In this document: positions 1-21,996 of the stretch, piece after piece
Numbering within the stretch: the stretch's first letter is position 1
Layout of the letters: every line of letters begins with the position of its first letter
Assembly (NCBI GenBank): GCA_048939565.1
Contig: JBHLPJ010000002.1
Location: forward strand, 1 to 32,160
Length of the DNA stretch: 32,160 nt
Source: Promethearchaeota archaeon
GTDB taxonomy: Archaea > Asgardarchaeota > Odinarchaeia > Odinarchaeales > JBHLKK01
Direction of reading: 5' to 3'
Program-made: the position numbers and the translations under genes
Notes under the pieces: generated by a model
What the model saw: only the letters and a program-made list of their open reading frames with translations
Database searches by the model: none
What the model was told of the DNA's origin: nothing

Positions 1-631
1 CTAGAAGTGCCCTCGTAAATATTCCCAAGGTCCCCTCGCTTCCAACAAACAGTTTTGTCAAATCATATCCTGATACAGCTTTCACACATTTTGACCCCGT
101 CCACATGACCTCACCTGTTGGCAGAACGACTTCCAATCCTTTGGTCCAGTCTCCAGTAACTCCATACTTAACCGCTCTCATGCCGCCGGCGTTTTCAGCT
201 ATCATTCCACCGATGGTGACCCAATCCTGACTTGATGGATCAGGAGGGAAAAATAGCCCCCTTTTTGAAAGCTCCTTGTCCAGATCCTTGTAGACAACGC
301 CAGGCTCGACCATTGCCTGAAAATTCTCCTCGTCAATCTCTAGGATCTTGTTCATTTTTGTAAAATCGAGTAGTATGCCGCCCATAATGGCAACTGGTCC
401 TCCGCTGAGACAGCTGCCGGCTCCTCGTGGAATTACCGGGATCTTGTTCTCATTAGCATGTTTCACAATCTGTACTACTTCTTCGGTTTTGTGAGGAAAT
501 ACTACGATTGATGGCCTTCCCTTGAGTGGAGTCGCATCTGAAGAATAGACCACCAGATCCGCTGGGTCTGAAAGGACGTTTTCCTCGCCAACCACACTAA
601 TAAGGTAATCTTCATTTACCTTGACAGTCAT
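1..631 (-). CDS. FAD-binding oxidoreductase, GlcD / D-lactate dehydrogenase-like (N-terminal part; the 3' end runs off the window)
   Basis: Not in the ORF track because no stop lies in the window. Hand translation from the ATG at 631-629 gives MTVKVNEDYLISVVGEENVLSDPADLVVYSSDATPLKGRPSIVVFPHKTEEVVQIVKHANENKIPVIPRGAGSCLSGGPV...EPGVVYKDLDKEL...FFPPDPSS...TIGGMIAENAGGMRAVKYGVTGDW. This is the typical PCMH-type FAD-binding domain (RGxG(T/S)...GG, PDPSS, GG..AENAGG). GGGGG lies just upstream of the ATG. Confidence 0.75.
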   Translation of the reverse strand, partial: MTVKVNEDYLISVVGEENVLSDPADLVVYSSDATPLKGRPSIVVFPHKTEEVVQIVKHANENKIPVIPRGAGSCLSGGPVAIMGGILLDFTKMNKILEIDEENFQAMVEPGVVYKDLDKELSKRGLFFPPDPSSQDWVTIGGMIAENAGGMRAVKYGVTGDWTKGLEVVLPTGEVMWTGSKCVKAVSGYDLTKLFVGSEGTLGIFTRALL

Positions 632-725
632 CCCCCTCACACCTACTTCCATGTTTAGGCTAGCATGACCCCTATATGTTAATGATAGTTAAGGCTTGTG
701 TTATTCGTCTTCACTACTCTACCGC

Positions 726-1373
726 CTATTTCAAAATCCTTCCTGTTTTCATGTACCAAAGATACAAGTCCAACTCACCAATTGGCAGATCAACTCTTTC
801 CGCCAAACGCTTCACTATCGATTCGATCTCCAAATACTTTCGTCCTGTAAGCGTTTTCGGGATGTAGTTAATCAGCCCGTATTCGTGCAAAATCCTCAAG
901 ACATGCCTATCCAAGATAGCTACATTCAGATAGCCAACATTTCGGAGGTAGTGGCTGACTTCCTTGTATCCAAGACCTTTGACATTCTTGACGAGCCACT
1001 CTCTCAAATCCTTCAGACCTCTTTCTTGGGGGCTTTTTTCGAAAATTCGAAGGATTATGCTTTTTATGTCTCTGATCTTTCTCGCTTCGACGATATATTC
1101 TGCTCTCCTGTTGGGGAATCTGTATCCACACTCCTTCAGTCTCTTTGTCAAAATGTGTCTTGGCAATGTGGAGAATTCCTGACCAATAACCCTTTGGATC
1201 TTTATGCCCATCTCTGCAGAGCAGTTTGCAGTTAACAAGCAGAAACAAAGTTCTGAGAACCAGCACTCATCATCTTGACCATGTAAGTCAATGAATTCTT
1301 CTATCCGTTTTTTGATTTCTTTTCCTGTCTTTGAGTCTTTCAGTTTCTTAACTTCATCTGCCAATCTTTCCAT
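726..1373 (-). CDS. ogg: N-glycosylase/DNA lyase, archaeal Ogg2-type 8-oxoguanine DNA glycosylase
   Basis: Near colinear with my memory of the Methanocaldococcus Ogg (MJ0724) sequence: ELCFCLLTAN, RRAEYIV, KGLGYKEVSHYLRNVGY..VAILDRHVLR (HhH-GPD), IPKTLTGRKYLEIE, LDLYLWYMKTGRILK at the C-terminus. Confidence 0.9.
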   Translation of the reverse strand: MERLADEVKKLKDSKTGKEIKKRIEEFIDLHGQDDECWFSELCFCLLTANCSAEMGIKIQRVIGQEFSTLPRHILTKRLKECGYRFPNRRAEYIVEARKIRDIKSIILRIFEKSPQERGLKDLREWLVKNVKGLGYKEVSHYLRNVGYLNVAILDRHVLRILHEYGLINYIPKTLTGRKYLEIESIVKRLAERVDLPIGELDLYLWYMKTGRILK

Positions 1374-1574
1374 GACTGTACCTAATTACACCATCTTTTA
1401 ATTCTTTCTCAGAGTTCCATGAGCAACTTCACTCGAGGAAAAGATGCCTAGGATTTTCTGAGTCTCTCTAGAAGCTTCTTTTTTCCTTTCGGTGGCAGAT
1501 CTCTTATCTCTTTCGAGGAGGACTAGTTCTTCTTCTCCTGTGGTTACTTGTATTTCCACAAGCTCCTCCAATGT

Positions 1575-1757
1575 CTACTCATATTCTTCTTTGAAGCCCT
1601 CTTCAGAAACACCTTCTTCAATTGGAGAGCGCTCTTCGGTTCTTGCCTTATTTAGAGTGGTGATTAACTTATCTCTCTCCTTGTGATCCATTTCTAGGAG
1701 TTGTTCTACCAAAGATTCTTGTCCAGCGTGAGGCAGACTTGGAAACTTGCCATCCAA
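1575..1757 (-). CDS. Hypothetical small acidic protein (TTG start), followed in frame after a single TAG by a second 57-codon ORF (1398-1571)
   Basis: ORF-track entry with charged, helix-like composition (LVEQLLEMDHKERDKLITTLNKARTEE...). No recognisable family and no ATG start. See the finding on the in-frame TAG. Confidence 0.25.
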   Translation of the reverse strand: MDGKFPSLPHAGQESLVEQLLEMDHKERDKLITTLNKARTEERSPIEEGVSEEGFKEEYE

Positions 1758-1834
1758 GTTTTACTAGCTCTTCAACCTCCGGAACCACTTCCTGGCCAAG
1801 AACCAATTCAAGCTCTATTAAATCTACCCTTCTA

Positions 1835-1890
1835 ACTTGTTTAGATAACTTGTTTAGATAAATTGTTTAGATAGAAAACTTGTCTAGATA
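1835..1890. repeat. Four direct copies of a 13-nt unit, consensus ACTTGTYTAGATA
   Basis: Copies read directly at 1835-1847, 1848-1860 and 1861-1873 (AATTGTTTAGATA), then a GAAA spacer, then 1878-1890 (ACTTGTCTAGATA). The array lies between the stop of the DUF457-like gene and the small minus-strand ORFs. Confidence 0.85.
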
Positions 1891-1908
1891 AAAAGAAGGG
1901 TAGGAATG

Positions 1909-2424
1909 TTACCATGGGATGACTATGATTCCTGTCCAAGGAATGATTCCTTCTGCCATGATTAAGAATATCCCTGCCCAAACAAGGCACATTACGCCCG
2001 ACCAGACAAGAAGTGGTTTTTCCCATTTCTCTGGAACTCCTCTTATATCCCCCGGCGTATATTCCTTGAAAACCCCTGCGACTCGTTTGAATATGGATGC
2101 ATTTGATGCAAATATGTCCAAAAGCAGGTGAGATGCATAGCCCAGAAAGAAGACAGCAAGAAATCGATAGGTAGTCGGATCAGGAACTATCAGAATATAG
2201 AATATGAAAAACAGAGTAGGAACTAAGCCACTGTGTGTTATGGGGCTTCTGTGATATTTCGCACCGAATCCTAGATCCAAATCTGGGAAGATTGAGCCAA
2301 ATACGCAGACGAACAGTGCTGGCCAGAACAGTACCTGAAAAAGCTGCAGAAATCGTTCTATCAGTAGATAGTAAAATGAAAAACCGATTACAGCCCAAAC
2401 GTGATGCTCGACCGATTGAACCAA
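1909..2424 (-). CDS. Membrane-bound metal-dependent hydrolase, DUF457/YdjM-like
   Basis: Polytopic hydrophobic protein with the motifs PDLD, HRSPITHS and YASHLLLD, typical of the DUF457 family. TTG start as given in the track. Confidence 0.65.
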   Translation of the reverse strand: MVQSVEHHVWAVIGFSFYYLLIERFLQLFQVLFWPALFVCVFGSIFPDLDLGFGAKYHRSPITHSGLVPTLFFIFYILIVPDPTTYRFLAVFFLGYASHLLLDIFASNASIFKRVAGVFKEYTPGDIRGVPEKWEKPLLVWSGVMCLVWAGIFLIMAEGIIPWTGIIVIPW

Positions 2425-2672
2425 TTCTATTCAACCTATTTATTTTATTAGTATAGCATGTTACTCATAAAATGTTGTAGCAATAATAAAAAACCTTCCT
2501 GCAAGAGGTTGGACCAGATTCTGTTTCACAATTGAACAGCTTCGTCCTTTGAGATCCAAGTTGTTTGCTAGCAAGCTGAAAATCTGCTAGTAGATGCCTC
2601 TCTTGCTCCAGTGTATCTCCCTGAGCCAAATTCGTTAATTTTTTATCCTTTGGTGCCAAAAATAAAGCAGAG

Positions 2673-3320
2673 TTGAAGCAATTATTTCTATGGGTGTTGA
2701 GAAACGTGCGTCTCAATTTAGCGGAGGGAGAATACTTAATTAGACTCGCAAGAAAGAGTATAGAAACATATTTGAGAACCGGAGAACGACTAAAGGCTCC
2801 TGAAGAAGCCTTCGAAGTACTTTATGAAAAACGCGGTGTGTTTGTCACTCTCCAAAGAATGCTTGAAGGCGAGAAGCGACTCAGAGGTTGTATAGGTTTT
2901 ATTGTTCCTCAATATTCGCTTATAGAAGCCACAATTCGCTCGGCTATAAGTGCAGCTGTCGATGATCCGAGATTTCCTCCTGTGGAATTCAATGAACTGA
3001 AAAAACTCGTAATTGAAGTAAGTGTTCTGACACCTGCCCAACTGGCAAAAGTAAATAACCCGCGAGAATACCCTTCCTCCATAAAGGTGGGTCGTGATGG
3101 TCTAATCGCAAAATTAGGATGGAAAACCGGAGTTCTGCTACCCCAAGTTGCGGTAGAATATGGTTGGGATGAGGAGCAATTCATAAAACAAACATGCATT
3201 AAGGCGTTTTTACCTCAAGATGCCTGGAAAGAGGATGAATTTGAGCTATATTCCTTTCAATCCCAGATTTTTGAGGAAAAATCTCCTAACGGAGAAGTCG
3301 AAGAGCGTAGCCTAACCTAG
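2673..3320 (+). CDS. AMMECR1 domain protein
   Basis: RGVFVTL...LRGCIGF core motif, DPRFPPV, LLPQVA. The true start is probably the internal TTG at 2697 or GTG at 2706 rather than TTG 2673. Confidence 0.85.
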   Translation: MKQLFLWVLRNVRLNLAEGEYLIRLARKSIETYLRTGERLKAPEEAFEVLYEKRGVFVTLQRMLEGEKRLRGCIGFIVPQYSLIEATIRSAISAAVDDPRFPPVEFNELKKLVIEVSVLTPAQLAKVNNPREYPSSIKVGRDGLIAKLGWKTGVLLPQVAVEYGWDEEQFIKQTCIKAFLPQDAWKEDEFELYSFQSQIFEEKSPNGEVEERSLT

Positions 3321-3417
3321 AGTAATTCTCCCAAAAAACAGTTGAAAAATCTTAAATATTAGTGGTAGATATTACTGTTTGCTTCGGGTCTCGTACACGA
3401 GAAAGAGGCGACCAAAA

Positions 3418-3744
3418 ATGAGTTTAATACTTGCCGTTCCTATTGCATTTGTGATTTGTCTGATAGTAGTTGGAATACTCTATCTTTTTGGTAGAAAAAT
3501 GGCCCCTCCAAGTAGAAAAAAGGGGGAAGCTGTGTTAACCTATGCTTGCGGTGAAGATATGGATCAAGAGAAAATCCAATTCAGAATTAACTGGCTATAC
3601 TATGCAATATATTTCGTTATCTTCGACATCATTGCTTTTACGCTTTCTCTATCCATTCAACTTGGGGTCTTTGAATCAGCACTAATGGCAGTAGCTTACT
3701 CCTTTATTTCCCTTGTAGCGATACTCGTACTCCTAAGACGATAG
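3418..3744 (+). CDS. NuoA(ND3)-like small membrane subunit of a group-4 hydrogenase / complex-I-like module
   Basis: Three predicted TM helices. The YACGED motif corresponds to YECG in NuoA, and YYAIYFVIFDIIAF corresponds to the NuoA A..F..FD.E motif. I prefer the ATG at 3418, preceded by AGAGG, over the track's TTG at 3379. Confidence 0.65.
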   Translation: MSLILAVPIAFVICLIVVGILYLFGRKMAPPSRKKGEAVLTYACGEDMDQEKIQFRINWLYYAIYFVIFDIIAFTLSLSIQLGVFESALMAVAYSFISLVAILVLLRR

Positions 3745-3757
3745 AGGTGAAAGAAGA

Positions 3758-4210
3758 ATGGGGTTACTTAAAAGATTGGTTGACTGGTCAAGGCGTAAAT
3801 CACCTTGGCTCCTCCACTTCAATGCTGGAAGCTGCAATTGCTGTGATATAGAAATCCTGGCTGCTCTGATGCCTCGATTCGACATAGAACGGTTTGGGGC
3901 TCTTCTTAAGGCCAGTCCGAGACATGCTGATGTACTCGTATGCACAGGACCTGTTACATTGCAGCAGGCAAAGCGTCTAAAAAGGATTTATGAGCAGACG
4001 CCAGATCCAAAGTTTGTAATGGTAGTAGGTACATGTGGAAGTACGGGTGGGGTCTTTAGAGGCTGTTATCATACTCATCAAGGAATTGATAATATTATTC
4101 CGGTTGATGTTTACGTTCCCGGCTGCCCTGCAAGACCTGAATCTATACTATTCGGGGCTGTAAGGTTACTTCAGAAATTGGAGGCAGTCCAAAAAGGTGA
4201 AAGTACATGA
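3758..4210 (+). CDS. Group-4 [NiFe]-hydrogenase small subunit / NuoB-like [4Fe-4S] subunit
   Basis: GSCNCCDIE, GTCGSTGG and VPGCPARPE cluster-ligand motifs, 150 aa. GAGGTGA Shine-Dalgarno sequence. Its stop overlaps the next start (ATGA). Confidence 0.9.
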   Translation: MGLLKRLVDWSRRKSPWLLHFNAGSCNCCDIEILAALMPRFDIERFGALLKASPRHADVLVCTGPVTLQQAKRLKRIYEQTPDPKFVMVVGTCGSTGGVFRGCYHTHQGIDNIIPVDVYVPGCPARPESILFGAVRLLQKLEAVQKGEST

Positions 4211-5940
4211 CTGTAGAAGCTGAGATTAGTGAAGAAGTATTGTTTAGGCAATTCCCTAAAGAGGGCGAGATAATACAATCGTTGCGTGAAGCACTAGGTG
4301 ATCGATTCATTGACAGTAAGATTGCACGAAAGCGTAGAGTCTATATCACAGTTGCTGAGGGAGCTCATCGCGAGGCGGCTAAAAAGCTTAAGGCAATGGG
4401 AGTATGGTATACTCCTGCCATTGTGGGATTAGATCAAAAAGAAAAATTCGAGGTTCTCTTCCAATTCTTTGACAAAGAAAGAAATCTACACATCGCAATA
4501 AGAGCTCCGGTTTCGAAGGATAATCCAGAGCTGGAAACAATAACGGACCTCTTTCCAGGGACTGTACTCTATGAACGAGAAGTACACGACATGTTTGGTA
4601 TTGTTTTCAAAAACCATCCCAACTTAGCTAAGTTTTTGCTGGCTGATATCTGGCCTGCAGACGAACATCCTCTAAGGAAGGATTGGCAGCCTACGGGCAG
4701 AAGAGTCAAGTCTCGAAGAAAAACATCTTTGGTCGCGGAAGGAGAATACCTTATTCAAGTTGGGCCTCAGATTCCAACGCTGAAAGAACCTATGAACTTC
4801 GAGGTTATTGCAGACGGAGAAGTTGTTGTTGACATAATTCCTCATCTAGAGTACAACCATCGTGGTATAGAAAAAGCCATGGAACAAAGAACCTTCACGC
4901 AAGGGATCTACCTCAGCGAGAGAGTCTGTGGCATTTGCAGCCAACCTCATGCATTCACCTACTGCAGCGCTGCCGAAAGATTGTTGGACGTTGAGGTCCC
5001 TCGGAGGGGACAATACCTCAGAACGATGGTTTATGAAATGAACAGAATACATAGCCATCTTCTATGGATTGGTGTTGCAGCTCACCTGATTGGTTGGGAT
5101 ACTCTATTCATGTATACGTGGCGGGACCGTGAGGTTATTCTAGATCTGACAGAACTAGTAACCGGGGGACGGTTGACAGGTGCAATAAACACCATTGGTG
5201 GAGCTAGAAGAGACATAAATGGCGATCAAATACAGAAACTTCGTAAAGGATTAAACATACTGGAAGAACGGACCAAAGCATATAAGAAAATCGCTCTAAA
5301 CGAGGACACTTTGATAAAGAGATGTCTAGGCGTAGGTATCATGAAGCCAGAATTGGCCAGGGATTATGCTGCGGTTGGGCCAACCATACGAGGATCTGGA
5401 ATCAAGGCCGATCTCCGTTGGGATGATCCAGAACATGGATGTTATGATGAGATTTCAGATGTGTTTGATCCCGTAACTTCCGATTTATGTGATGTCGCAG
5501 GAAGACTAATTGTTCGTGCAGATGAGACGTTGGAATCGGTAAACATGATTCGTTGGATTCTTGACCATTTGCCAAGCGGACCAGTCCGAAAAAGAGTACC
5601 CAGGAGAATTCCGAGAGCTGAATCTGTGGGAAGGACTGAAGCTCCTCGAGGCGAAGTGTATTATTACATGGTGTCTAATAACACGGATAAGCCAGAAAGG
5701 GTGAAAATAAAAACACCAACGATAGCGAATATTCCTGCATTTATCGAATCCACAAAAGGACTATACATCGCAGACTTTGTAATTAACTTTGGCAGTATCG
5801 ATCCCTGCATTGCATGTACTTGTAGGACAACAATTACCGACATAAGCCACCCCAACAAGCCAAAACATCGTGTTATGTCACATGAAGAATTAAGGCAGTA
5901 TGGGATTAAATGGTACGAAGAAAGGAAATGGAGGAAGTAA
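4207..5940 (+). CDS. Fused NuoC-like / [NiFe]-hydrogenase large subunit (NuoD-like, HycE-type architecture)
   Basis: The N-terminal ~170 aa form a NuoC-like domain (FPGTVLYEREVHDMFGI.F). The large-subunit domain keeps both Ni-Fe ligand motifs: RVCGICSQPH (4921-4950) and DPCIACTCR (5800-5826). A 37-aa C-terminal tail follows. Confidence 0.9.
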   Translation: MTVEAEISEEVLFRQFPKEGEIIQSLREALGDRFIDSKIARKRRVYITVAEGAHREAAKKLKAMGVWYTPAIVGLDQKEKFEVLFQFFDKERNLHIAIRAPVSKDNPELETITDLFPGTVLYEREVHDMFGIVFKNHPNLAKFLLADIWPADEHPLRKDWQPTGRRVKSRRKTSLVAEGEYLIQVGPQIPTLKEPMNFEVIADGEVVVDIIPHLEYNHRGIEKAMEQRTFTQGIYLSERVCGICSQPHAFTYCSAAERLLDVEVPRRGQYLRTMVYEMNRIHSHLLWIGVAAHLIGWDTLFMYTWRDREVILDLTELVTGGRLTGAINTIGGARRDINGDQIQKLRKGLNILEERTKAYKKIALNEDTLIKRCLGVGIMKPELARDYAAVGPTIRGSGIKADLRWDDPEHGCYDEISDVFDPVTSDLCDVAGRLIVRADETLESVNMIRWILDHLPSGPVRKRVPRRIPRAESVGRTEAPRGEVYYYMVSNNTDKPERVKIKTPTIANIPAFIESTKGLYIADFVINFGSIDPCIACTCRTTITDISHPNKPKHRVMSHEELRQYGIKWYEERKWRK

Positions 5941-5943
5941 GAC

Positions 5944-6990
5944 ATGGTTTTGGAAGCTATCCTCGACATACTTCAAATCTTGCTTTTCCCAGGAATATTC
6001 TTCTGTCTCGCTTTAGCACTCTTTTACTCGTGGATAGACAGGAAATATCATGCCGATCTTCAGAACCGAATGGGACCGACATATACCGGGTGGCGAGGGA
6101 TACTTCAGCCTTTTGCAGACTTCATAAAGCTCATGGCCAAAGAAGATATCACTCCGGCAGCAGCCGATAGGAGGAGTTTCGCTGCTGTACCAATTATCCT
6201 GCTGGCGGTTCCTCTCACTGCTCTTCTTCTGATACCGATTAGCAGCGCAGCCGGAATAATTAGCTTCCCTGGTGACATTGTATTTCTGATGTTCTTATCA
6301 ACCATAATTGCGATTCTTATCTTTCTTGGCGGATGGTTTTCAACGAATGTATTCAGTGACATTGGAGCTACAAGAGCTGTCCTGCAGCTGATTGGATATG
6401 AGATACCTTTTATGATAGCCGTGTTCTCTCCGGCTATTCTGGCTGGTTCACTTACACTTGCACAGGTTGTTCAGTATCAAGCTGCTAATGGCTGGATGCT
6501 TTTCCAATTCCCAGCTATATATAGGAGTATTCCGATGTGGATTGCCTTTGGCATCTATATGATAGCATTGATGGCCGAACTTGAGAAAATCCCTCTGGAC
6601 ATTCCGGAAGCTGAAACCGAAATCGTTGCTGGATGGCAAACTGAATACTCCGGTAAGAAGTTCGCATTCCTTGTTCTATCAAATGATCTTCACATGCTAT
6701 TCGGTGCAGGCTTAGCTGTAACGTTATTCTTGGGCGGACCTTTCGGGATCGAGAAGCTGCCAGGACTGGCCTGGTTGGATGCGTTTATTTCGGCAACACC
6801 TGTAGTCAGAGAAATCTGGTATACAATATGGTTTATACTAAAGACTGCAATAATTGTGCTGATAATTTCAAACATCAGGACTTTGTTTGCACGTTATAGG
6901 GTTGATCAGATGATTCGTGGCTCGTGGAAGTATCTGGCACCACTTGCCTTGGTTCAAGTAATGATAATTCAACTAGTAAGTCTAATTTAA
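5944..6990 (+). CDS. NuoH/HycD/EchB-like polytopic membrane subunit
   Basis: N-terminal DRKYHADLQNRMGPTYTGWRGILQPFADFIKLMAKED matches the NuoH family signature (RK..A..Q.R.GP...G..G.LQ..AD..KL..KE). About 8 hydrophobic segments. Confidence 0.9.
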   Translation: MVLEAILDILQILLFPGIFFCLALALFYSWIDRKYHADLQNRMGPTYTGWRGILQPFADFIKLMAKEDITPAAADRRSFAAVPIILLAVPLTALLLIPISSAAGIISFPGDIVFLMFLSTIIAILIFLGGWFSTNVFSDIGATRAVLQLIGYEIPFMIAVFSPAILAGSLTLAQVVQYQAANGWMLFQFPAIYRSIPMWIAFGIYMIALMAELEKIPLDIPEAETEIVAGWQTEYSGKKFAFLVLSNDLHMLFGAGLAVTLFLGGPFGIEKLPGLAWLDAFISATPVVREIWYTIWFILKTAIIVLIISNIRTLFARYRVDQMIRGSWKYLAPLALVQVMIIQLVSLI

Positions 6991-6994
6991 GAAG

Positions 6995-7387
6995 GTGATG
7001 TTATTGCCTTTCCCTGGAGCTATGCAAGGTGAACTGTTGAAGCATCTTACTAAGAAGAGAGCAACTGTGCTTTATCCGTTTGAGAAGTTGGAGCTGGCTG
7101 AAGCGTATAGGGGTCGATGGTCTCATAACATGGCCAAATGTACTGGTTGTGGTCTTTGTGCAAAAGACTGTCCGAGCGAAGCCATACAGCTGGTTCAGAC
7201 CGATATAACTCCTGGTGGCAGGTATCCTGTCTGCTATTTGAGTCGATGTATGTTCTGTGCTCAATGTGAAGATACTTGCCCGACAGGTGCTATCCAACTC
7301 ACAAATGAATATGAGCTTGCTGATTATCAGAAGAGAATCATCGACAGCGCCGAACCTGAAGGATTTAGATACGAAGAAAGTAAATAA
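6995..7387 (+). CDS. NuoI/HycF/EchF-like 2x[4Fe-4S] ferredoxin subunit
   Basis: Two cluster motifs, CTGCGLCAKDCP and CMFCAQCEDTCP. GAAGGTGA RBS; the start is GTG 6995 or ATG 6998. Confidence 0.85.
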   Translation: MMLLPFPGAMQGELLKHLTKKRATVLYPFEKLELAEAYRGRWSHNMAKCTGCGLCAKDCPSEAIQLVQTDITPGGRYPVCYLSRCMFCAQCEDTCPTGAIQLTNEYELADYQKRIIDSAEPEGFRYEESK

Positions 7388-7512
7388 ATTAATTATTTCC
7401 TTATTTATTCTTATATTCGTCTCACATTTATCCATATCTTTTCAGTATTCTTTCTGTTAAGTAAATAAAACAAGATTATTGATTCCTACCTATTCTTTTT
7501 TGTTTTCAGAAA

Positions 7513-7539
7513 GATTTAAAAGAAACAAGCATAAATACT
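7513..7539 (+). promoter_or_regulatory. Candidate BRE/TATA region for the histone gene
   Basis: A/T-rich TATA-like elements GATTTAAAAG (7513-7522) and CATAAATACT (7530-7539), 40-70 nt upstream of ATG 7581 and upstream of the GGAGG RBS at 7568-7572. Judged by eye only. Confidence 0.3.
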
Positions 7540-7580
7540 AAGTGCAAATGGTTTAGTATATTAAATCGGAGGATAAAAAA

Positions 7581-7802
7581 ATGGCTACAAAGTTAACGAA
7601 TGCTCGTGTCGAGAGAATAATGAGGGAGACAGGGAAGAAGGAAGGAATTCCTCGTGTTTCAGCGGATGCAGTTGTTTCGATGAATGATGCTGCGACCAAA
7701 TTCATTCGTAGCATCTGTGCAGTTGCAGCTGGTCTGGCAAAGAAGGATAGACGTAAGACCGTCTTACCGCGAGACATCGATCAAGCTGTAAAACAAGCAT
7801 AA
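7581..7802 (+). CDS. Archaeal histone (HMf / CBF-NF-Y histone-fold family)
   Basis: 73 aa with a histone-fold pattern: L..ARVERIMRE.G...RVSADAV......A..FI......A...A....RKTVLPRDIDQAVK. The RKT...DI..AV signature matches HMfB-type histones. Confidence 0.85.
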   Translation: MATKLTNARVERIMRETGKKEGIPRVSADAVVSMNDAATKFIRSICAVAAGLAKKDRRKTVLPRDIDQAVKQA

Positions 7803-7819
7803 AACTCCCTTCTTCATTA

Positions 7820-7840
7820 TTTTTTTGGGGTACTTTTTTT
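7820..7840 (+). terminator. Two T7 tracts immediately downstream of the histone gene (archaeal oligo-T terminator)
   Basis: T7 at 7820-7826 and T7 at 7834-7840, within 40 nt of the stop at 7802. Confidence 0.5.
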
Positions 7841-7898
7841 GGATCTCATATAGCTGAACCTAGGCTCTCTTACAAAAACCAATTTTGCGATTTATACG

Positions 7899-7922
7899 AA
7901 AAACCGAGTATTTTCGGTTTTT
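7899..7922 (+). terminator. Perfect 9-bp stem hairpin with a T-rich 3' side
   Basis: AAAAACCGA (7899-7907), loop GTATTT, TCGGTTTTT (7914-7922), followed by TT. Lies in the intergenic region between the histone and the Rab-like GTPase gene. Its role (terminator, or RNA or protein-binding element) is unknown. Confidence 0.3.
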
Positions 7923-8040
7923 TTGTGACATCTTTTTATGATAATCACAATCATATCTTGATTGATATGCGGAATCCTTAAATGCCATTTTGCACAATTA
8001 TTTATCAGGAGCGCAAAAGAATACTGCGGGAGATTGCTAA

Positions 8041-8601
8041 ATGCTACTAAACACTGAGCTGTTCAAGGTAATTGTCACTGGAGAGGGTGGTGTTGGAAAA
8101 ACCTGCCTTGTTCAGCGTTATACTAGCGGTAACTTTTATCACACAAGGACGACCATCGGAGTAGGATTTGCCACAGCTGATGTTAATCTCAATGGAAGAG
8201 ACATAAAACTCCAGATTTGGGACTTCGGTGGTGAAGAACGTTTTAGAAGACTTCTTCCCTCTTTCTGCAAAGGAGCAAGTGGAGCATTAGTTCTATTTGA
8301 CTTGACAAGATTTCCTACTTTTCTTCATCTCAACGAATGGTTGGATCTCATAAGAGATAACACCAACAATATACCGCTGGTCCTCGTGGGATCAAAGGCC
8401 GATCTTACGAACATGAGAGTTGTTGGCAGAGAAGAGATCGCCGACCTGATGAATAAATACAATATCGAACACTATTACGAAGTCTCATCGAAAGATGGAA
8501 TCAACACAGAGGTGGTTTTTACTCGAATTGCTAAACTAATAGTTAACTCATTTGAGACCAGCAACACGAATAATGAACACGGGATAATAAGCATACAATA
8601 G
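8041..8601 (+). CDS. Small GTPase, Rab/Ras-like
   Basis: G1 GEGGVGKT, switch-I region TIGVGF (Rab-type IGVDF), G3 WDFGGEERF, G4 GSKAD, G5 SSK. 186 aa with no C-terminal Cys prenylation motif. Confidence 0.9.
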   Translation: MLLNTELFKVIVTGEGGVGKTCLVQRYTSGNFYHTRTTIGVGFATADVNLNGRDIKLQIWDFGGEERFRRLLPSFCKGASGALVLFDLTRFPTFLHLNEWLDLIRDNTNNIPLVLVGSKADLTNMRVVGREEIADLMNKYNIEHYYEVSSKDGINTEVVFTRIAKLIVNSFETSNTNNEHGIISIQ

Positions 8602-8611
8602 GAGGTATAAG

Positions 8612-9598
8612 TTGTTGAGCGTTACTGATCAAAGCTTCTTGGAGACCAAGCAGCCTGTTATATGTGATATCTGCGGTGAGAAGTTTAATATTAAAATTGA
8701 AAAAGAATATCTTAACGATGTCAAGCGTTTTCCGTTCTCTTACACGTTTGTACATGGAGCACCACCACATGCAGTTGTAGTATATCTTGATAAGGATCTG
8801 AATGTTAGAGGAACTGAGACATCTGATCTGACAAGCATAAAAAGCGGTGAACTAAATACTCCCGCTGTAGATATTACGCCTGATACTCGTCCTATTCTTT
8901 CAAAAAGGGACATCGGAAAGTTGGAAATGGACGGCGATACTGTTTTTATACTTCGAGAGATTGACGGTGAGCTTACAGTTAAGGAAATCGCTGAGAAAAC
9001 CAAAATGGACATAGACAAGGTATGCCAGAAAGTCCAGTATTTAGTTGACTCTGGCGTGCTAATGCCGCTGTTACCTATTGACCTCTGTAATGTGGATTAC
9101 CATCGGATTTACGAGCTCATACCGCCATATAATACAAACAATGTAACCATGACTGCAGGTGCCCAGAGAAGTTCTGCAACCTGCACAATTCTCAGCAACC
9201 TTGACAAGGACTACACTGTTCTGGAAATCGCTCGAGGCCTTGAAAAGGCTGGCTTTGATAAATCTCCCAAAGACGTCCTTGAGACTTTGGAATACTTCGA
9301 GGCTAGGGATGTGGTTCGAGTAAAAGGCCTGACTAAGATTGATATACCTGAGGAATGGAACGATCCTATATTCAATCAAGTACCAAGATTTGCAGACGGT
9401 ATAGAAGAAGAAAGCATACTCAAGAAGGTACCAATTCCAGACAAAACACACTATTTCATTATCAAGAATATTGGAAGAAGGAGTATACTCGATACCACAT
9501 TAGGCTTAATAGGACTTGGCATAGAGACAAATCCTAGAAGGGTACTAGAAATCATAAGGAAGTATCAAAAGCAAGGCTTGGTATATGCCACATTCTAG
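8612..9598 (+). CDS. Hypothetical protein: N-terminal C-x2-C-x26-H-x4-H domain followed by three winged-helix-like repeats
   Basis: TTG start 11 nt after the GTPase stop, preceded by GGAGGT. N-terminal segment CDICGEKF...YTFVHGAPPHAVVVYLDKDLNVRG. Three helix-rich segments of about 55 aa each end in a beta-hairpin-like motif: ...LVDSGVLMPL, ...EARDVVRVKG and ...QKQGLVYATF. No family recognised. Confidence 0.7.
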   Translation: MLSVTDQSFLETKQPVICDICGEKFNIKIEKEYLNDVKRFPFSYTFVHGAPPHAVVVYLDKDLNVRGTETSDLTSIKSGELNTPAVDITPDTRPILSKRDIGKLEMDGDTVFILREIDGELTVKEIAEKTKMDIDKVCQKVQYLVDSGVLMPLLPIDLCNVDYHRIYELIPPYNTNNVTMTAGAQRSSATCTILSNLDKDYTVLEIARGLEKAGFDKSPKDVLETLEYFEARDVVRVKGLTKIDIPEEWNDPIFNQVPRFADGIEEESILKKVPIPDKTHYFIIKNIGRRSILDTTLGLIGLGIETNPRRVLEIIRKYQKQGLVYATF

Positions 9599-9717
9599 GC
9601 ATAAACCATCTCATTCCTTTTTCTACTTTCTTTGTTCAACAATATTTAATAACAAATGGCACCATAGTCTACCCTGTCAAGATTAAACATTATGCCATAA
9701 GAGAGGAGGCAGAAATA

Positions 9718-9990
9718 GTGACTAAGTCCGAGAGTATAAGATCCAGGTGCAAGTTGTGTGACATCATCATTGATATTCCTGTTCCCAAAGATTTCGATGC
9801 CAGCGAAGGTGGCGTTGCACCCATAGTCTATGTACATGGCAATCCTCCTCACACAATAATCGCATATGTGGATGTGAATCTATCGGTCAGAAGCAGTTTC
9901 GTTGTTAGAACCACCGATCCCAAAAAGGCATTAACCGAGCTGAGAAAAAAAGCACTCAAGAGAATGGTAAAACGTGTAAAATCGCTCTGA
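9718..9990 (+). CDS. Hypothetical small protein: stand-alone paralog of the C-x2-C...H-x4-H domain, with a basic C-terminal helix
   Basis: GTG start preceded by GAGGAGG. CKLCDIIIDIP...PIVYVHGNPPHTIIAYVDVNLSVRS aligns residue-for-residue with the N-terminus of the 8612-9598 product. Confidence 0.65.
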   Translation: MTKSESIRSRCKLCDIIIDIPVPKDFDASEGGVAPIVYVHGNPPHTIIAYVDVNLSVRSSFVVRTTDPKKALTELRKKALKRMVKRVKSL

Positions 9991-10045
9991 TTCTGCTGCC
10001 ATCTATACCAAGAGGTCAAAAGAAGTGGAGAAGAAAAAGCAGCTC

Positions 10046-11011
10046 CTACTTCTCGCCGCATCGCTCCATGATTAACTCCCAGTTTTTATCAACATGCGCT
10101 TGAATCTGTTTGATAATATCGTCGCGTCTTTCCGGTCGGAATAGATGTCTGAATCGGCCTTGAATCTTTAGAAACTCTTCAACAGGTCTCTTTTTTTCGG
10201 GCTTTCTAACTATGATTTTGCTCGGTGTAGATAGTTTGTAGACAGCCTTTCCGTTCTCCAAGGCTGCCTCCCACAGCGGGAAGAAACAAGTTTCAACTGC
10301 TACTCTGGCAACTTTTACTGATAAGGCCGGATCATGTCGCCACCCTCTCTGACATGAAGCAAATACGTGCATAAATGCTGGACCTTGCACATCATAAGCA
10401 CTCTGGGCCTTTTGCATCAAATCTCTCCAATAGGCTGGTGATGCAGTAGCAACATAAGGTATTTCATGTTCTACTGCAATCCTTGCAATGGGTTTCTTCC
10501 ACTCAACCTTTCCTGGGATGACCTTTCCTGCGGGGCTTGTTGTTGTCCAAGCATATCGAGACGTACCGCCGCTCCTCTGGATACCAGTATTCATGTATGC
10601 TTCATTATCAAGCAGCACATATACAAAATCATGCCCTCGTTCTAGAGCACCAGAAAGTGCTTGAATTCCAATATCTATTGTACCGCCATCTCCAGCTAAA
10701 GCAAGAACATTGATGTGTCTCTTCATTTTTCCACGTCTTTTAAAACTTTTTAGCGTAGCCTCTATACCGCTTGCTGTGGCAGCTGCATTCTCAAATGCGT
10801 TATGAATCCATGGTATCTTCCAAGAAGTATAAGGATAGATGCTAGTTGAGACTTCGAGACAGCCTGTAGCGCTAACGGCTATAATGGGATCCTTACTGGC
10901 TTTCAGTAGAAGTCTTGTTGCTGTTCCTTCTCCACATCCGGGACACAATCTGTGACCTCCAGAAAGCAATTCATCAGGGGATTTTGCTATATCTTTGGCC
11001 TTCAACGACAT
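10046..11011 (-). CDS. porB: Pyruvate/2-oxoacid:ferredoxin oxidoreductase beta subunit (TPP-binding)
   Basis: LCPGCGE N-terminal Cys motif and the GDGG..DIG TPP-binding motif. The size and position as last gene of the four-subunit operon fit. Substrate specificity (pyruvate versus another 2-oxoacid) cannot be determined by eye. Confidence 0.88.
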   Translation of the reverse strand: MSLKAKDIAKSPDELLSGGHRLCPGCGEGTATRLLLKASKDPIIAVSATGCLEVSTSIYPYTSWKIPWIHNAFENAAATASGIEATLKSFKRRGKMKRHINVLALAGDGGTIDIGIQALSGALERGHDFVYVLLDNEAYMNTGIQRSGGTSRYAWTTTSPAGKVIPGKVEWKKPIARIAVEHEIPYVATASPAYWRDLMQKAQSAYDVQGPAFMHVFASCQRGWRHDPALSVKVARVAVETCFFPLWEAALENGKAVYKLSTPSKIIVRKPEKKRPVEEFLKIQGRFRHLFRPERRDDIIKQIQAHVDKNWELIMERCGEK

Positions 11012-11015
11012 CTTA

Positions 11016-12239
11016 TTATCTCACCCCCAGATACTGGATTCTTTTTTTGACCTTCCCAGTTTTGACAATCTCAAGTCCATCTTTGAAGGTCTTTCTAATG
11101 AGTTCTTGGGGCACATCACGACCACCTAAGCCGTATATGTAATTAACAATAATCGGCCTCTCTTCTTTTTCATAAAACAGTGATCTCAACTCGTTAAATA
11201 CTGGACCTCCATATCCTCCTGGAACGGAGCTTCTATCAAGAACTGCTACAACCTTGATGCCTTCCAGTGCTTCGGATAATTTCTCATATGGGAATGGTCT
11301 AAATACTCTAAGCTTCAGCGATCCGACTTTTGCTCCTTCATCTTTCATAGTCTTGGCCACGTATCTAGTTGTACCTGCTGTGGAACCTAGACTTAAGATC
11401 GCCACATCGGCATCTTCTAGTCCTTGCTGTTCAATGATACCATAGGTCCGCCCCGAGATTTCGCCATACTCCTTGTCAATCTTCTCGATAGCTCCTTCGA
11501 CGTTGTTCATTGCCAAGATTTGTTGCATCTTAATTTCGAAATAGTAATCTGTCAATGCTAGATCACCAAAACTCAGCGGATTCTCCGGGTCTAGTACATA
11601 TGGAGCTTCTTTGCTCCCGACATCTACCTTGGGGATTCTTCTCTCTCCAATGAAATCTTTTACTGCCTCATCCGGAAGCACGGTTACGTTTTCTAATGTG
11701 TGGCTTAATACAAAGCCATCTAGCGTATCCATAACTGGCAGTTGAACCTCAGGATGTTCAGCTATCCTCCATGCTTGGATTGTTGTATCATAGGCTTCTT
11801 GGCTGTTCTCACAATAGATTTGTATCCAACCGCTGTCTCTTGCCCCCATTGTATCTGAGTGGTCGCAATGAATATTAATGGGTGCTGAAAGCGCACGATT
11901 GACGACGGTCATGACTATCGGCAGACGTAATCCCGCAGCTATGTAGAGAATCTCCCACATTAATGCTAGACCTTGGCTAGCAGTTGCGGTGTATGCCCTT
12001 CCTCCGACAGCAGCTGCTCCCACACACGCCGACAAAGCCGAGTGTTCAGATTCTACAGCCACAAACTCAGTGTTAACTTCTCCGTCTGCGACATATTCCG
12101 AGAATCTCTCAACAATTATCGTTTGGGGTGTTATGGGATAAGCTGCCACAACATCTGGATCACATTGTTTTGCCGCAAAAGCTGCAGCCTCGTCGCCATT
12201 TAGAGCCAATATCTTTTGCTTAACGGCCATTTTCATCAC
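11016..12239 (-). CDS. porA: Pyruvate/2-oxoacid:ferredoxin oxidoreductase alpha subunit
   Basis: LNGDEAAAFAAKQCDPDVVAAYPITPQT and the overall ~400 aa layout are typical of PorA. Start ambiguous (GTG 12239, ATG 12236 or ATG 12230); it overlaps the porD stop. Confidence 0.9.
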   Translation of the reverse strand: MMKMAVKQKILALNGDEAAAFAAKQCDPDVVAAYPITPQTIIVERFSEYVADGEVNTEFVAVESEHSALSACVGAAAVGGRAYTATASQGLALMWEILYIAAGLRLPIVMTVVNRALSAPINIHCDHSDTMGARDSGWIQIYCENSQEAYDTTIQAWRIAEHPEVQLPVMDTLDGFVLSHTLENVTVLPDEAVKDFIGERRIPKVDVGSKEAPYVLDPENPLSFGDLALTDYYFEIKMQQILAMNNVEGAIEKIDKEYGEISGRTYGIIEQQGLEDADVAILSLGSTAGTTRYVAKTMKDEGAKVGSLKLRVFRPFPYEKLSEALEGIKVVAVLDRSSVPGGYGGPVFNELRSLFYEKEERPIIVNYIYGLGGRDVPQELIRKTFKDGLEIVKTGKVKKRIQYLGVR

Positions 12240-12523
12240 TCCTTAATCATAGTTATTGCTTCAACCGGGCATTCTTCAGCACAAATACCACACCCTTTGC
12301 AGAAATCATAGTCAAAAGAAATCTTTTCTCCATCCCACTTCACTGCAGCATCTGGACAGTAAAGCCAACATAACATACATGTCGTACATTTTTCATGGTC
12401 TATTGTTGGTTTGAATGTACGCCAAGCGCCTGTATGGTACTCTTCACTAGATTTCCAGGCAACTCCACCCATGGGTATTTCTTTCCAGCCCTTCTTCTCA
12501 GTCACTTTCTTTTGCCTCCTCAT
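12236..12523 (-). CDS. porD: Pyruvate/2-oxoacid:ferredoxin oxidoreductase delta subunit (2x[4Fe-4S])
   Basis: CTTCMLCWLYCPD and CKGCGICAEECP ferredoxin motifs. The start is possibly GTG 12505, preceded by AGGAGG, rather than ATG 12523. Confidence 0.85.
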   Translation of the reverse strand: MRRQKKVTEKKGWKEIPMGGVAWKSSEEYHTGAWRTFKPTIDHEKCTTCMLCWLYCPDAAVKWDGEKISFDYDFCKGCGICAEECPVEAITMIKE

Positions 12524-13073
12524 ACGCTCTCGTAATCAATTGAACATTCATTTCTCCGACCTTTCCTCTAAATCGTTCTTCGGTCGCTTCCAATACGCTT
12601 TCTAGTTTTGTATACCCTGTTGCCTTTACCAGGGCACCAATCATGGCCGTACTGGTTATTTCCCGTCCTAAAATCTCTACGGAGAGATCAGTGGCCGGTA
12701 TTACCCAGACTCTTTGTGATTTGGTCAAGTTGATTCTCTTCTTTAGATCAGAGGGAGAATCTCGCGAATTTATGGCTATTATGCCATTTTGAACCAATCC
12801 GTCCGAAACATCTACCGCATCAAGCAGCGTGGGATCTAAGACGACGACGCTGTCTGGCTCATAAATGCCGCAATGCAAATCTATGGGGCTGTCCGAAATA
12901 CGAACATATGCCTCCACGGGAGCTCCGCTTCGTTCAGGTCCAAATGCTGGAAAAGACTGAGTATATCGACCCTCGTGGATTACTGCCTTTGCCAGTATCT
13001 GTGTGGCGGTCCAAGCACCTTGACCTCCTCTGCCGTGAAATCTTATCTCTATAATCTTGTCTGCAGACACCAT
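12498..13073 (-). CDS. porG: Pyruvate/2-oxoacid:ferredoxin oxidoreductase gamma subunit
   Basis: IRFHGRGGQGAWTATQILA...FGPERSGAP is the PorG signature. First gene of the minus-strand porGDAB array. Confidence 0.9.
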   Translation of the reverse strand: MVSADKIIEIRFHGRGGQGAWTATQILAKAVIHEGRYTQSFPAFGPERSGAPVEAYVRISDSPIDLHCGIYEPDSVVVLDPTLLDAVDVSDGLVQNGIIAINSRDSPSDLKKRINLTKSQRVWVIPATDLSVEILGREITSTAMIGALVKATGYTKLESVLEATEERFRGKVGEMNVQLITRAYEEAKESD

Positions 13074-13184
13074 ATCGCCTCCATATCATTAGATTAATCA
13101 TACACCGTGAAATTAGAAGATAGATATAACAGTTATGCCCAAAAAAGGCATGAAAATTGCCAAATCGTTGTAGCATATAGGGTC

Positions 13185-14057
13185 TCATATGCCATCTTTT
13201 GACAGGACACCCTCTATAAGCTCCAAACTAAAGCTAAGAGCTTTAACTGAATGGGTTAAGCTTCCCATCGATATCACATCAACACCTGTTGCAGCATACT
13301 CGTCGACGTTTTCGAATGTAATCCCTCCCGATGCTTCAATAGTGACCTTTTCCCTCAATCCTTGATTCTTTAGTTCATACATGGTTTGTCTAATCTGATC
13401 CGGCTTCATGTTATCTAACATAATTATGTCTGCCTTAGCTTTAGCAGCCTTCAAACAATCTTCGGTATTCTCGACCTCAATCTCTACTTTCTTGGAGAAG
13501 CTAGCCTTGCCTCGAGCGACTCCTATCGCAGTTTCGACATCTCCAACGAGAGCAAGATGGTTATCTTTAATCAATATGCAATCATCTAGCCTGAATCTAT
13601 GCGTGTCTCCACCTCCAATCTCTGCGGCCCGTTTATCAAAGTATCTGAGAAGAGGGGCTGTCTTTCTGGTTACGGCAATCCGAATCCCCGGGTTCATCTT
13701 CCTTGCTTTTTCGATGGTTCTGCTAATTGCAGTAGCTATTCCGCTCATTCGCATAAGGAAATTGAGGGCGGTCCGCTCACAGGTAAGTATGGCTTTCGCG
13801 GATCCTTCAATAATCATAACGGTTGTTCCCTTTTTTTCAACCTTATCGCCATCATTCATTTTGGGAGTGACTTCTAATCCCATCTGCTCAAAAATGGTTT
13901 TTGCCTCTCTAATTCCGGCCACAACACCGATCTCTTCAGCTACTATTCTGGCTTTACTCCGCTGATCTCCAATCAGAATTTCTGTTGTTATGTCGCCAAA
14001 CCCTACATCCTCATTTAGAGCGTGAATAACTCTCTCCTCAAGATCGAAAGCCTTCAA
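13185..14057 (-). CDS. nadC: Nicotinate-nucleotide pyrophosphorylase (quinolinate phosphoribosyltransferase)
   Basis: ALNEDVGFGDITT, ERTALNFL..MSGIAT, TRKT.P, KDNH and MLDN motifs. Confidence 0.9.
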   Translation of the reverse strand: MKAFDLEERVIHALNEDVGFGDITTEILIGDQRSKARIVAEEIGVVAGIREAKTIFEQMGLEVTPKMNDGDKVEKKGTTVMIIEGSAKAILTCERTALNFLMRMSGIATAISRTIEKARKMNPGIRIAVTRKTAPLLRYFDKRAAEIGGGDTHRFRLDDCILIKDNHLALVGDVETAIGVARGKASFSKKVEIEVENTEDCLKAAKAKADIIMLDNMKPDQIRQTMYELKNQGLREKVTIEASGGITFENVDEYAATGVDVISMGSLTHSVKALSFSLELIEGVLSKDGI

Positions 14058-14990: not shown

Positions 14991-14993
14991 TAA

Positions 14994-15839: not shown

Positions 15840-15968
15840 ACTATTTCCTAGAATTGAAAAATAATGATTATGATTTATAAATTAACCGATTGAAAAATTA
15901 AGAAAAGATAAAGCCCCCTTAGATACCGATTTCTAGACCTTCATCTCAAGTAACGGATTGATTTCCCA

Positions 15969-21603: not shown

Positions 21604-21996
21604 GTGTCATCTGTAAAAATCACTCCTGAAAAAGCAAAAGAATTGGCCAATTATCTTAGTGAGATTACCATGAAAACCGAATTAGAGGCTCTGGCCTGTG
21701 TTACGCGTGAGGGACAACGACTTGCTTTCAAAACTGTTGGCTATGAAGTTGAACCGGATCTAATGTCAGCAATTTCAGCTGCCATGCTTCATGTAGGAGA
21801 GACTGCCGTATCAAGAATGGGCTTTGGAGATCTTTGGGAGGTTATTGTCACAGGAGCGGAGGGCTATATAGTGTTATCTGGAGCGGGAAAGCTGGTCTTG
21901 ATAGGTGCTGGGAGATCTATGACTAGTCTCGGCAATACTGTGAGTGTATTTAGAAATTATGCAAAAATGGTTGCCAATCTGTTTCCTAGCAAGTAA
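21604..21996 (+). CDS. Roadblock/LC7 (MglB-like) domain protein
   Basis: 130 aa. LEALACVTREGQRLAF...DLMSAISAAML..GE....MGFGDLWEVIVTGAEGYIVLSGAGKLVLIGAGRSMTSLGNT follows the Roadblock/LC7 profile. GTG start preceded by AGGGAG. Confidence 0.75.
   Translation: MSSVKITPEKAKELANYLSEITMKTELEALACVTREGQRLAFKTVGYEVEPDLMSAISAAMLHVGETAVSRMGFGDLWEVIVTGAEGYIVLSGAGKLVLIGAGRSMTSLGNTVSVFRNYAKMVANLFPSK

Follow-up and report, generated by a model that had tools for sequence, protein, structure and literature searches.

The window, the whole 32,160-nucleotide stretch of contig JBHLPJ010000002.1 from a Promethearchaeota archaeon that was analysed here, carries five tightly packed plus-strand genes between positions 3418 and 7387, encoding in order a NuoA-like protein, NuoB, a fused NuoC-NuoD, NuoH, and NuoI. 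These genes probably specify the hydrogenase head (NuoI, NuoB, and NuoCD) and the membrane foot (NuoH and NuoA) of a split-encoded, complex-I-like group 4 [NiFe] hydrogenase, with the rest of the membrane arm encoded at other loci. The five genes are listed below.

3418..3744, plus strand: NuoA/ND3-like membrane subunit, 108 residues (Pfam Oxidored_q4)
3758..4210, plus strand: NuoB, the hydrogenase small subunit, 150 residues (Pfam Oxidored_q6, NCBIfam NuoB)
4207..5940, plus strand: fused NuoC-NuoD, the [NiFe] hydrogenase large subunit, 577 residues (Pfam, alignment A1)
5944..6990, plus strand: NuoH/ND1-type membrane subunit, 348 residues (Pfam NADHdh, alignment A2)
6995..7387, plus strand: NuoI-type subunit with two 4Fe-4S clusters, 127 to 130 residues (two CxxCxxCxxxCP motifs, Pfam Fer4)

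Successive genes are joined by a 13-nucleotide (nt) gap, a 4-nt ATGA overlap, a 3-nt gap (between the large-subunit gene and the NuoH gene), and a 4-nt gap, in agreement with the original prediction for this stretch of DNA, which had described a tight operon with an ATGA overlap and gaps of 3-13 nt. The nuoI start is placed 9 nt later in public assemblies, at 7004 instead of 6995, resulting in a product of 127 residues.

Pfam recognised Complex1_30kDa and Complex1_49kDa domains in the NuoC-NuoD fusion, together with the NiFeSe_Hases N-terminal motif. All four cysteine ligands of the Ni-Fe site are present in motifs L1 (RVCGICSQPH) and L2 (DPCIACTCR), as had been predicted, and these residues (C241, C244, C534, and C537) are invariant across 17 aligned relatives (alignment A1). 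When compared to solved structures, the large subunit matched HycE of Escherichia coli most strongly (2.7e-86), followed by MbhL of Pyrococcus furiosus (3.8e-71) and NuoCD (~1e-59), and it ends in a HycE-homologous C-terminal extension of 37 residues, most of which is covered by the HycE alignment. The small subunit, NuoB (Pfam Oxidored_q6, 4e-30; NCBIfam NuoB, 2.7e-48), contains one proximal 4Fe-4S site (CxxC...C...C) with the motif GSCNxCDIE, and its four cysteines are invariant in 8 relatives (alignment A4). NuoI carries two CxxCxxCxxxCP motifs, is recognised by Pfam Fer4, and matches the HycF/NuoI and HyfH families in NCBIfam; it is likely the entry point for ferredoxin. A large subunit with the four cysteines of L1 and L2, a short NuoB with a single cluster, and a NuoH encoded with the catalytic subunits are among the features that mark a group 4 [NiFe] hydrogenase, and these three were found at this locus. 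The earlier assignment of the locus to a hydrogenase and not to a complex I Q-module is sound, given the Ni-Fe ligands, the CxxC small subunit, and the HycE-like C-terminal extension. NCBIfam returned the same subunit names as Pfam with every match below the equivalog cut-off, indicating that the five proteins are divergent members and not ordinary Nuo or Fpo subunits.

At the L2 motif (window 5806-5832, residues 532-540, alignment A1 columns ~602-610), the window species and Odinarchaeota read DPCIAC(T/M)CR, with an extra cysteine in place of the aspartate found in almost all other relatives (DPCxxCTDR). Residues 26-30 of NuoB (window 3833-3847) read SCNCC, compared to (S/G)CN(G/A)C in all relatives, a Gly-to-Cys change that is private to the window species. 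This CNCC was considered as a complex-I-like tandem-cysteine (N2 site) feature and rejected, as the relatives carry CNGC, and the tandem Cys-Cys is probably incidental.

The membrane subunits were compared in the same manner. The first protein had been described as a NuoA-like protein of 109 residues; a Pfam Oxidored_q4 match above the curated cut-off (6.7e-8, 33.1 bits, cut-off 23.3) upholds its identity, while its length is corrected to 108 residues. It contains a YACGE loop (the YxCG motif) and an FDI motif in the second helix, is 60% identical to its Odinarchaeota orthologue, and finds its best solved-structure matches in NdhC, Nqo7, and ND3 (1.5e-4 to 0.01), with MbhI matching only marginally (E 0.16). 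NuoH (Pfam NADHdh, 1e-86) matched NdhA and Nqo8 at 1e-44 to 4e-42, compared to 2e-21 for MbhM and 3e-17 for HycD, and its acidic loop between transmembrane helices 5 and 6, AELEKIPLDIPEAETEIVAGWQTEYSG, is kept (alignment A2). By these matches, the membrane foot belongs to the complex I type and is far nearer to complex I/NDH-1 than to Mbh or formate hydrogenlyase (FHL), so that a hydrogenase-type NuoD is combined at this locus with a complex-I-type NuoH and NuoA. The main role of NuoA in complex I is to connect NuoH with NuoJ/K.

No antiporter-like, NuoJ, or NuoK gene was found in the whole 32 kb window by tblastn and hidden Markov model (HMM) scans. Pfam scans, which took in window open reading frames (ORFs) longer than 110 residues from 726 to 28886 and left four longer ORFs past 28.8 kb outside, returned no Proton_antipo_M, NuoJ, NuoK, Mrp, or FpoF-like gene among the ORFs scanned. 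The window also contains no hyp or hycI maturation gene and no NADH or F420H2 input module. The absence of an antiporter-like subunit, as originally proposed, holds for the locus and for the 32 kb window but fails for the organism, given a NuoL-NuoM pair in a conspecific genome.

Window positions 1-15940 align to three public assemblies (L001, L002, and L003) with 35 to 43 substitutions each and no gaps (99.73 to 99.77% identity), and on this sequence evidence the window is from a closely related population or is another assembly of the same species. Assembly GCA_048886265.1, with 99.75% identity over 15.9 kb (39 mismatches), is conspecific, though not necessarily the window's own, and GCA_975958455.1, GCA_048886755.1, and GCA_048937425.1 are of the same species. 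A large subunit identical to that of the window is encoded on its contig JBHLKU010000001.1 (152.9 kb) and in several read-set assemblies, and its contig JBHLKU010000003.1 encodes a 709-residue NuoL (protein P0376) at 93,037-95,166, followed by a gene for a NuoM-like protein of 499 residues. The same orphan NuoL-NuoM pair was present in three more NCBI assemblies and in three read-set assemblies.

The NuoL of the window species is full length, with NdhF as its best solved-structure match (1e-96), and keeps the Glu of WEGVG, the Lys of KSAQFP, the Lys of HAxFKA, and the SKE motif; it could be aligned to NdhF as far as WYINEAYY, the start of the lateral helix. From these features, the conspecific NuoL looks functional. 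The P0376 cluster, labelled Promethearchaeota/Hodarchaeota, is 60.6% identical to NuoL from Odinarchaeota, compared to 61% for the large subunit, and the identities of the window lineage to Odinarchaeota, Baldrarchaeia, and Asgardarchaeia are congruent across subunits (61, 53, and 54% for NuoCD; 62, 49, and 46% for NuoH; 60, 49, and 48% for NuoL). An opposite-strand gene of the CLP1_P family lies 3′ of the membrane-arm genes in the Asgardarchaeia operon (L015:18984-20285) and again after the orphan NuoM (L022:13752-15008), the two being 32% identical, and this shared neighbour hints that L-M could be the surviving 3′ portion of what was once one operon.

Most of the closest large subunits (56 to 64% identity) belong to Odinarchaeota, with one 90% cluster including Ca. 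Odinarchaeum yellowstonii LCB_4 (WEU40017.1), the nearest sequences being those of Odinarchaeota, Asgardarchaeia, Baldrarchaeia, and Jordarchaeia. The cluster to which the window's large subunit belongs and its nearest sister carry the public names Promethearchaeota archaeon and Candidatus Hodarchaeota archaeon. The A-B-CD-H-I block is kept in three Odin-lineage loci (L005, L008, and L010), with large subunits 59 to 64% identical to that of the window and no antiporter gene in the block. The Odinarchaeota NuoL proteins were recovered by a search with the Baldrarchaeia NuoL. The gene arrangements found in the relatives were the following.

Asgardarchaeia (L015): one operon, B-C-D-H-I-J-J'-K-L-M-N-A
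Baldrarchaeia (L016): J-J'-K-L-M followed, after 4 kb of unrelated genes on the opposite strand, by A-B-C-D-H-I
Bathyarchaeia (L013): A-B-CD-H-I and J-J'-K-L-M, divergent
Bathyarchaeia (L014): all genes contiguous
Odinarchaeota JAEOUO010000001.1 (GCA_016839265.1), 978,338-982,298, minus strand: five-gene unit
Odinarchaeota JAEOUO010000001.1, 999,221-1,005,283, plus strand: orphan J-J'-K-L-M-N cluster

On JAEOUO010000001.1, the five-gene unit and the J-J'-K-L-M-N cluster are divergent and 16.9 kb apart, and the cluster has no B, C, D, H, I, or A of its own. Since the one has no membrane arm and the other no head, the simplest reading is that the two encode one complex. On a second Odin-lineage contig (L017), an orphan J-J'-K-L-M-N cluster lies between a paralogous hydrogenase operon and genes for an A-type ATP synthase. 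Every relative whose membrane-arm locus could be read has NuoJ and NuoK, and the large subunits of all these Odinarchaeota, Baldrarchaeia, Asgardarchaeia, and Bathyarchaeia loci keep the four Ni-Fe cysteines. The NuoI/NuoJ junction is thus a recurrent genomic breakpoint and the full form of the family is a set of the 11 complex I core subunits with an intact Ni-Fe site.

A second, paralogous group 4 hydrogenase operon lies directly upstream of the five-gene unit in Odinarchaeota (L005:1-5242 and L008:962-8436). It encodes, in order, a Fer4_11 protein, a 91-residue protein, a CCG-domain (HdrD-like) protein, a 99-residue protein, one antiporter-like subunit, a fused CD that is 35% identical to that of the window, a NuoH-like protein, a protein with two 4Fe-4S clusters, and NuoB. 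These operons probably correspond to the Mbh-like complexes with a heterodisulfide-reductase domain of Appler et al. No such operon was seen in the window species within 13 kb upstream or 25 kb downstream of the five-gene cluster.

Other relatives are divided differently. In GCA_003661645.1 (P0006, large subunit 56% identical), the loci L011:4911-7438 and L012:3362-5901 encode only NuoB, fused CD, and NuoI, without NuoA or NuoH, and adjoin genes for aconitase, isocitrate dehydrogenase, and ATP-citrate lyase; an 80-residue ORF upstream of the L011 NuoB was considered as a NuoA remnant and rejected at 17% identity. On two Joint Genome Institute (JGI) metagenome contigs (L032:4068-8955 and L035:5384-10276), B-CD-I lies on one strand and A-H-J-J'-K and following genes are divergent on the other, so that the soluble head is separated from the whole membrane arm at a different breakpoint within the same family. 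Given these two contigs, the B-CD-I-only locus of P0006 is more likely a split than a soluble enzyme. A protein search with the NuoM/N-like subunit of L013 returned only Bathyarchaeia among its best 120 matches (≥51% identity) and no Asgard sequence, and is uninformative on the window lineage; a genome-collection scan with the Odinarchaeota NuoL, in which the patterns were exact 8-residue peptides, returned four close relatives only, the window species not among them.

These arrangements bear directly on what the five genes encode. One alternative offered in the original prediction, that the module docks to subunits encoded elsewhere, is supported by the conspecific orphan NuoL-NuoM and by the J-K-L-M(-N) genes of the relatives, which lie 4 to 17 kb away or in the same operon. 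Its headline, a minimal and possibly non-pumping hydrogenase, is not favoured, because matching membrane-arm genes exist both in the same species, as NuoL-NuoM, and in the membrane modules of the relatives.

In the split-encoded enzyme that we propose, reduced ferredoxin, for example from the nearby 2-oxoacid:ferredoxin oxidoreductase, would pass electrons to NuoI, where they would move through its two 4Fe-4S clusters to the one in NuoB and then to the Ni-Fe site in NuoD, at which protons would be reduced to H2. As happens in complex I and Mbh, redox chemistry at the NuoB/D/H/A interface would drive ion translocation via NuoH, NuoA, NuoJ, NuoK, and the antiporter-like subunits, and the enzyme could also operate in reverse. 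Ferredoxin as the donor, the direction in which the reaction runs, and the stoichiometry of pumping are presumed by analogy to the known working of Mbh, FHL, and complex I. It is plausible that the nearby oxidoreductase supplies the reduced ferredoxin, and its neighbourhood is common to the window and the Odinarchaeota loci L005 and L008, a conservation that weakly supports ferredoxin as the donor.

Several points weigh against a split-encoded enzyme. The assembly of the products of the two gene sets into one complex is suggested by orthology and co-occurrence only, and the L-M pair may serve another partner. NuoL-NuoM does not adjoin J and K, unlike in every relative examined, and the arrangement would be more fragmented than any precedent. 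In the 65 kb that were read, which comprise the window, the adjoining 5.8 kb upstream, and 22 kb surrounding L-M, tblastn and family HMMs detected no NuoJ, J', K, or N, and a metagenome scan with a NuoK alignment returned 80 loci, none of which is of the window lineage (best NuoB 62%, no nucleotide match). The transfer of electrons from ferredoxin to protons also yields little energy, and by our reasoning a pump with three or four sites would be hard to drive unless H2 is very low. Given this low yield, either a partner must hold H2 down, or fewer ions are moved per reaction than by complex I, or the enzyme can run in reverse.

The conspecific contig contains no Nuo-type gene in the 5.8 kb beyond the start of the window, that is, to 13.4 kb upstream of the five-gene cluster. 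An Rce1-like gene upstream of NuoL was considered as a disguised NuoJ/K and rejected, as it matched Pfam PF02517 and was blank with the J and K HMMs. Since a NuoL with a long lateral helix and a NuoM have been kept intact, NuoJ, NuoK, and possibly NuoN are likely to lie at a further, third locus; the alternative to a third locus is a reduced membrane arm in the window lineage.

The best-surviving of the other explanations, although an unlikely one, is a stand-alone minimal hydrogenase in which A, B, CD, H, and I are the whole enzyme, forming H2 from ferredoxin without pumping or with at most one ion moved through NuoH/NuoA, and in which L-M is a relic or has another function. The five genes are indeed self-contained, tightly coupled, and conserved as a block, J, K, and N were not found near the five-gene locus or the L-M locus, and a low stoichiometry would be in keeping with the little energy that H2 formation from ferredoxin provides. 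L011, with B-CD-I alone, indicates that the family tolerates reduction or further splitting, but the separation of B-CD-I from A-H-J-K in L032/L035 means that an incomplete locus is no sign of an incomplete enzyme. Both NuoL and NuoM are intact and full length, with their key charged residues kept and the pair conserved in at least four assemblies, and the orphan JKLMN cluster of Odinarchaeota, which has no other obvious partner, accompanies the same five-gene unit. The retention of NuoA also argues for a membrane arm, given its place as the bridge from NuoH to NuoJ/K in complex I. The more specific case in which NuoJ, NuoK, and NuoN have truly been lost, L-M has been recruited elsewhere, and A-B-CD-H-I is the smallest known membrane-bound [NiFe] hydrogenase, anchored by NuoH/NuoA and either non-pumping or pumping through NuoH only, is a little less probable still.

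It is more doubtful again that the head docks to a different membrane partner, such as an independent Mrp-type antiporter or a paralogous hydrogenase's membrane part, and not to NuoL-NuoM. The Odinarchaeota relatives do carry the paralogous operon with its one antiporter-like subunit directly upstream, and a published schematic shows Mrp antiporters in Lokiarchaeales. With its own NuoH, NuoB, and NuoI, the paralogous operon nevertheless looks self-sufficient, and it is missing from the 13 kb upstream and 25 kb downstream in the window species. The partners of complex-I-type NuoH and NuoA, such as those of the window, are NuoJ/K and NuoL/M/N, and L shows the same pattern of divergence across lineages as CD and H. 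Finally, a quinone or methanophenazine reductase of the 11-subunit complex-I/Fpo type, dependent on ferredoxin or F420H2, is barely credible even though NCBIfam ranks NuoD, FpoD, NuoH, and FpoH highest (each below its cut-off) and an FrhB/FpoF-like gene adjoins the cluster in Bathyarchaeial relatives, because the four Ni-Fe cysteines are invariant across the family, the large subunit is best matched by the HycE and MbhL structures and carries a HycE-like C-terminal maturation extension, the small subunit is of the hydrogenase-type CxxC form and not tandem-Cys, and no FpoF-like gene was found among the scanned ORFs of the window.

The split-encoded reading places the enzyme within a known family. 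Complex-I-like group 4 [NiFe] hydrogenases that include NuoA, a complex-I-type NuoH, and a NuoL with a lateral helix have already been described in Asgard archaea, with AlphaFold-Multimer models that join a hydrogenase module to a proton-translocating membrane module (Appler et al., bioRxiv 10.1101/2024.07.04.601786; Valentin-Alvarado et al., Nat Commun 2024, PMC11291895). The subgroups 4j-4q come from Appler et al., who also caution that open reading frames may be missing from the multimer inputs (10.1101/2024.07.04.601786). The original comparison was with Ech, Coo, Hyc/Hyf, and Mbh, a set that omits these Asgard enzymes described in 2024. Like them, the enzyme of the window has a peripheral arm of NuoB, C, D, and I that lacks NuoE, F, and G, the Ni-Fe ligands of NuoD, a complex-I-type NuoH, NuoA, and (in the conspecific genome) NuoL with its lateral helix, an Asgard host, and ferredoxin as the presumed donor. 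Unlike them, its NuoC and NuoD are fused, and the genes of the window species are distributed over at least two, probably three, loci, with L-M apart from J and K, neither of which turned up in the 65 kb read.

The Odinarchaeota (GCA_016839265.1, and WEU40017.1 of LCB_4) share with the window the order A-B-CD-H-I, with proteins 60 to 81% identical, as well as NAD biosynthesis genes and the 2-oxoacid:ferredoxin oxidoreductase in the neighbourhood. Their membrane-arm genes lie together on the same contig, 16.9 kb away, with the paralogous operon and its HdrD-like subunit in between, whereas in the window species L-M is on another contig and the paralogous operon is absent from the neighbourhood. 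With the 11-subunit core of complex I/NDH-1/Fpo, the enzyme shares a similar subunit set and order and has NuoH, NuoA, and NuoL nearest to NdhA/Nqo8, NdhC/Nqo7, and NdhF/NuoL, respectively; it differs in that NuoD has the Ni-Fe cysteines in place of quinone-binding residues and that NuoB of the family uses CxxC and not the N2 tandem cysteines. The large subunit is most similar to that of E. coli FHL, HycE, including a fused NuoC-like N-terminus and a C-terminal extension of the cleavable type, and then to MbhL of the P. furiosus Mbh, while the NuoI-like subunit matches the HycF/HyfH families, with H2 evolution from a low-potential donor as the presumed chemistry.

Ech, FHL, and Mbh encode their antiporter-like subunit (EchA, HycC, or MbhH) in the same operon, unlike the window operon, which has no antiporter gene. 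They also have no clear NuoA, which is present at the window locus, and the NuoH-like subunits of Mbh and FHL are much more distant, as seen for MbhM (2e-21) and HycD (3e-17). Strictly speaking, the enzyme is not an Ech, FHL, or Mbh, and it is not a complex I that reduces quinone either; the locus most likely represents a further Asgard complex-I-like hydrogenase, with a fused CD and unusually scattered genes, and not a new minimal enzyme.

For annotation, the lesson is that the locus is not the enzyme in this family. Head-plus-foot genes and membrane-arm genes are repeatedly found apart, as divergent units, 4 kb or 17 kb from one another, or on different contigs, and surveys limited to the immediate neighbours of the large-subunit gene will undercount antiporter-like subunits. 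Because of this repeated separation, claims of shorter membrane arms in Asgard hydrogenases, and the evolutionary account leading from Mbh-like enzymes to complex I, need a whole-genome check. The locus also adds one more Asgard lineage with a complex-I-like hydrogenase beside a ferredoxin-producing oxidoreductase, which fits an H2-evolving, syntrophic fermentation. Were the five subunits the whole enzyme after all, they would provide a minimal model, and a useful one, of the complex I coupling site.

The boundaries and neighbours of the five-gene cluster are given below.

2673-3320, upstream of the five-gene cluster: AMMECR1 (Pfam, 2e-54)
3321..3417, plus strand: intergenic leader 5′ of nuoA, 63.9% A+T (sequence reading)
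7388..7580, plus strand: A/T-rich spacer with T-runs, 193 nt, 76.7% A+T
7581-7802, downstream of the spacer: archaeal histone (Pfam)
10046-13073, minus strand: four-subunit 2-oxoacid:ferredoxin oxidoreductase, context and not part of the complex (Pfam TPP_enzyme_C, POR_N/PFOR_II, Fer4, and POR)

The leader contains TTAAATAT, a TATA-like box ~60 nt before the nuoA ATG, as read from the letters, and may act as an archaeal promoter. The spacer, at 76.7% A+T compared to 57.4% for the whole window, is likely to hold both the terminator of the five-gene cluster and the promoter of the histone gene. The flanks described earlier (AMMECR1, the 193-nt A/T-rich spacer, and the histone gene) were recovered by Pfam and base composition, and Pfam likewise confirmed the four-subunit oxidoreductase. 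A 144-residue ORF at 7001-7435 on the minus strand, antisense to nuoI, is uncalled in every public assembly of the locus and is probably spurious.

On a conspecific contig (L002:3901-6425, minus strand, reaching window position 631), a 458-residue FAD-linked oxidase (GlcD/D-lactate dehydrogenase-like) is encoded with a 380-residue Fer4_8/CCG-domain (HdrD/GlcF-like) protein, a pair that is potentially another electron-input enzyme near the hydrogenase genes. Within the window, several Ras/Arf-family GTPases, a Roadblock-like protein, and the histone are a mark of Asgard origin. Small GTPases are encoded at 8041-8601 and at 15969-16814 (minus strand), and a weak Roadblock/LC7 match lies at 21604-21996. 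The plus-strand gene at 17084-18922 encodes a 612-residue protein in which an N-terminal Ras-family GTPase (Pfam Ras, 5e-51) is fused to a C-terminal M20 peptidase with a dimerisation domain.

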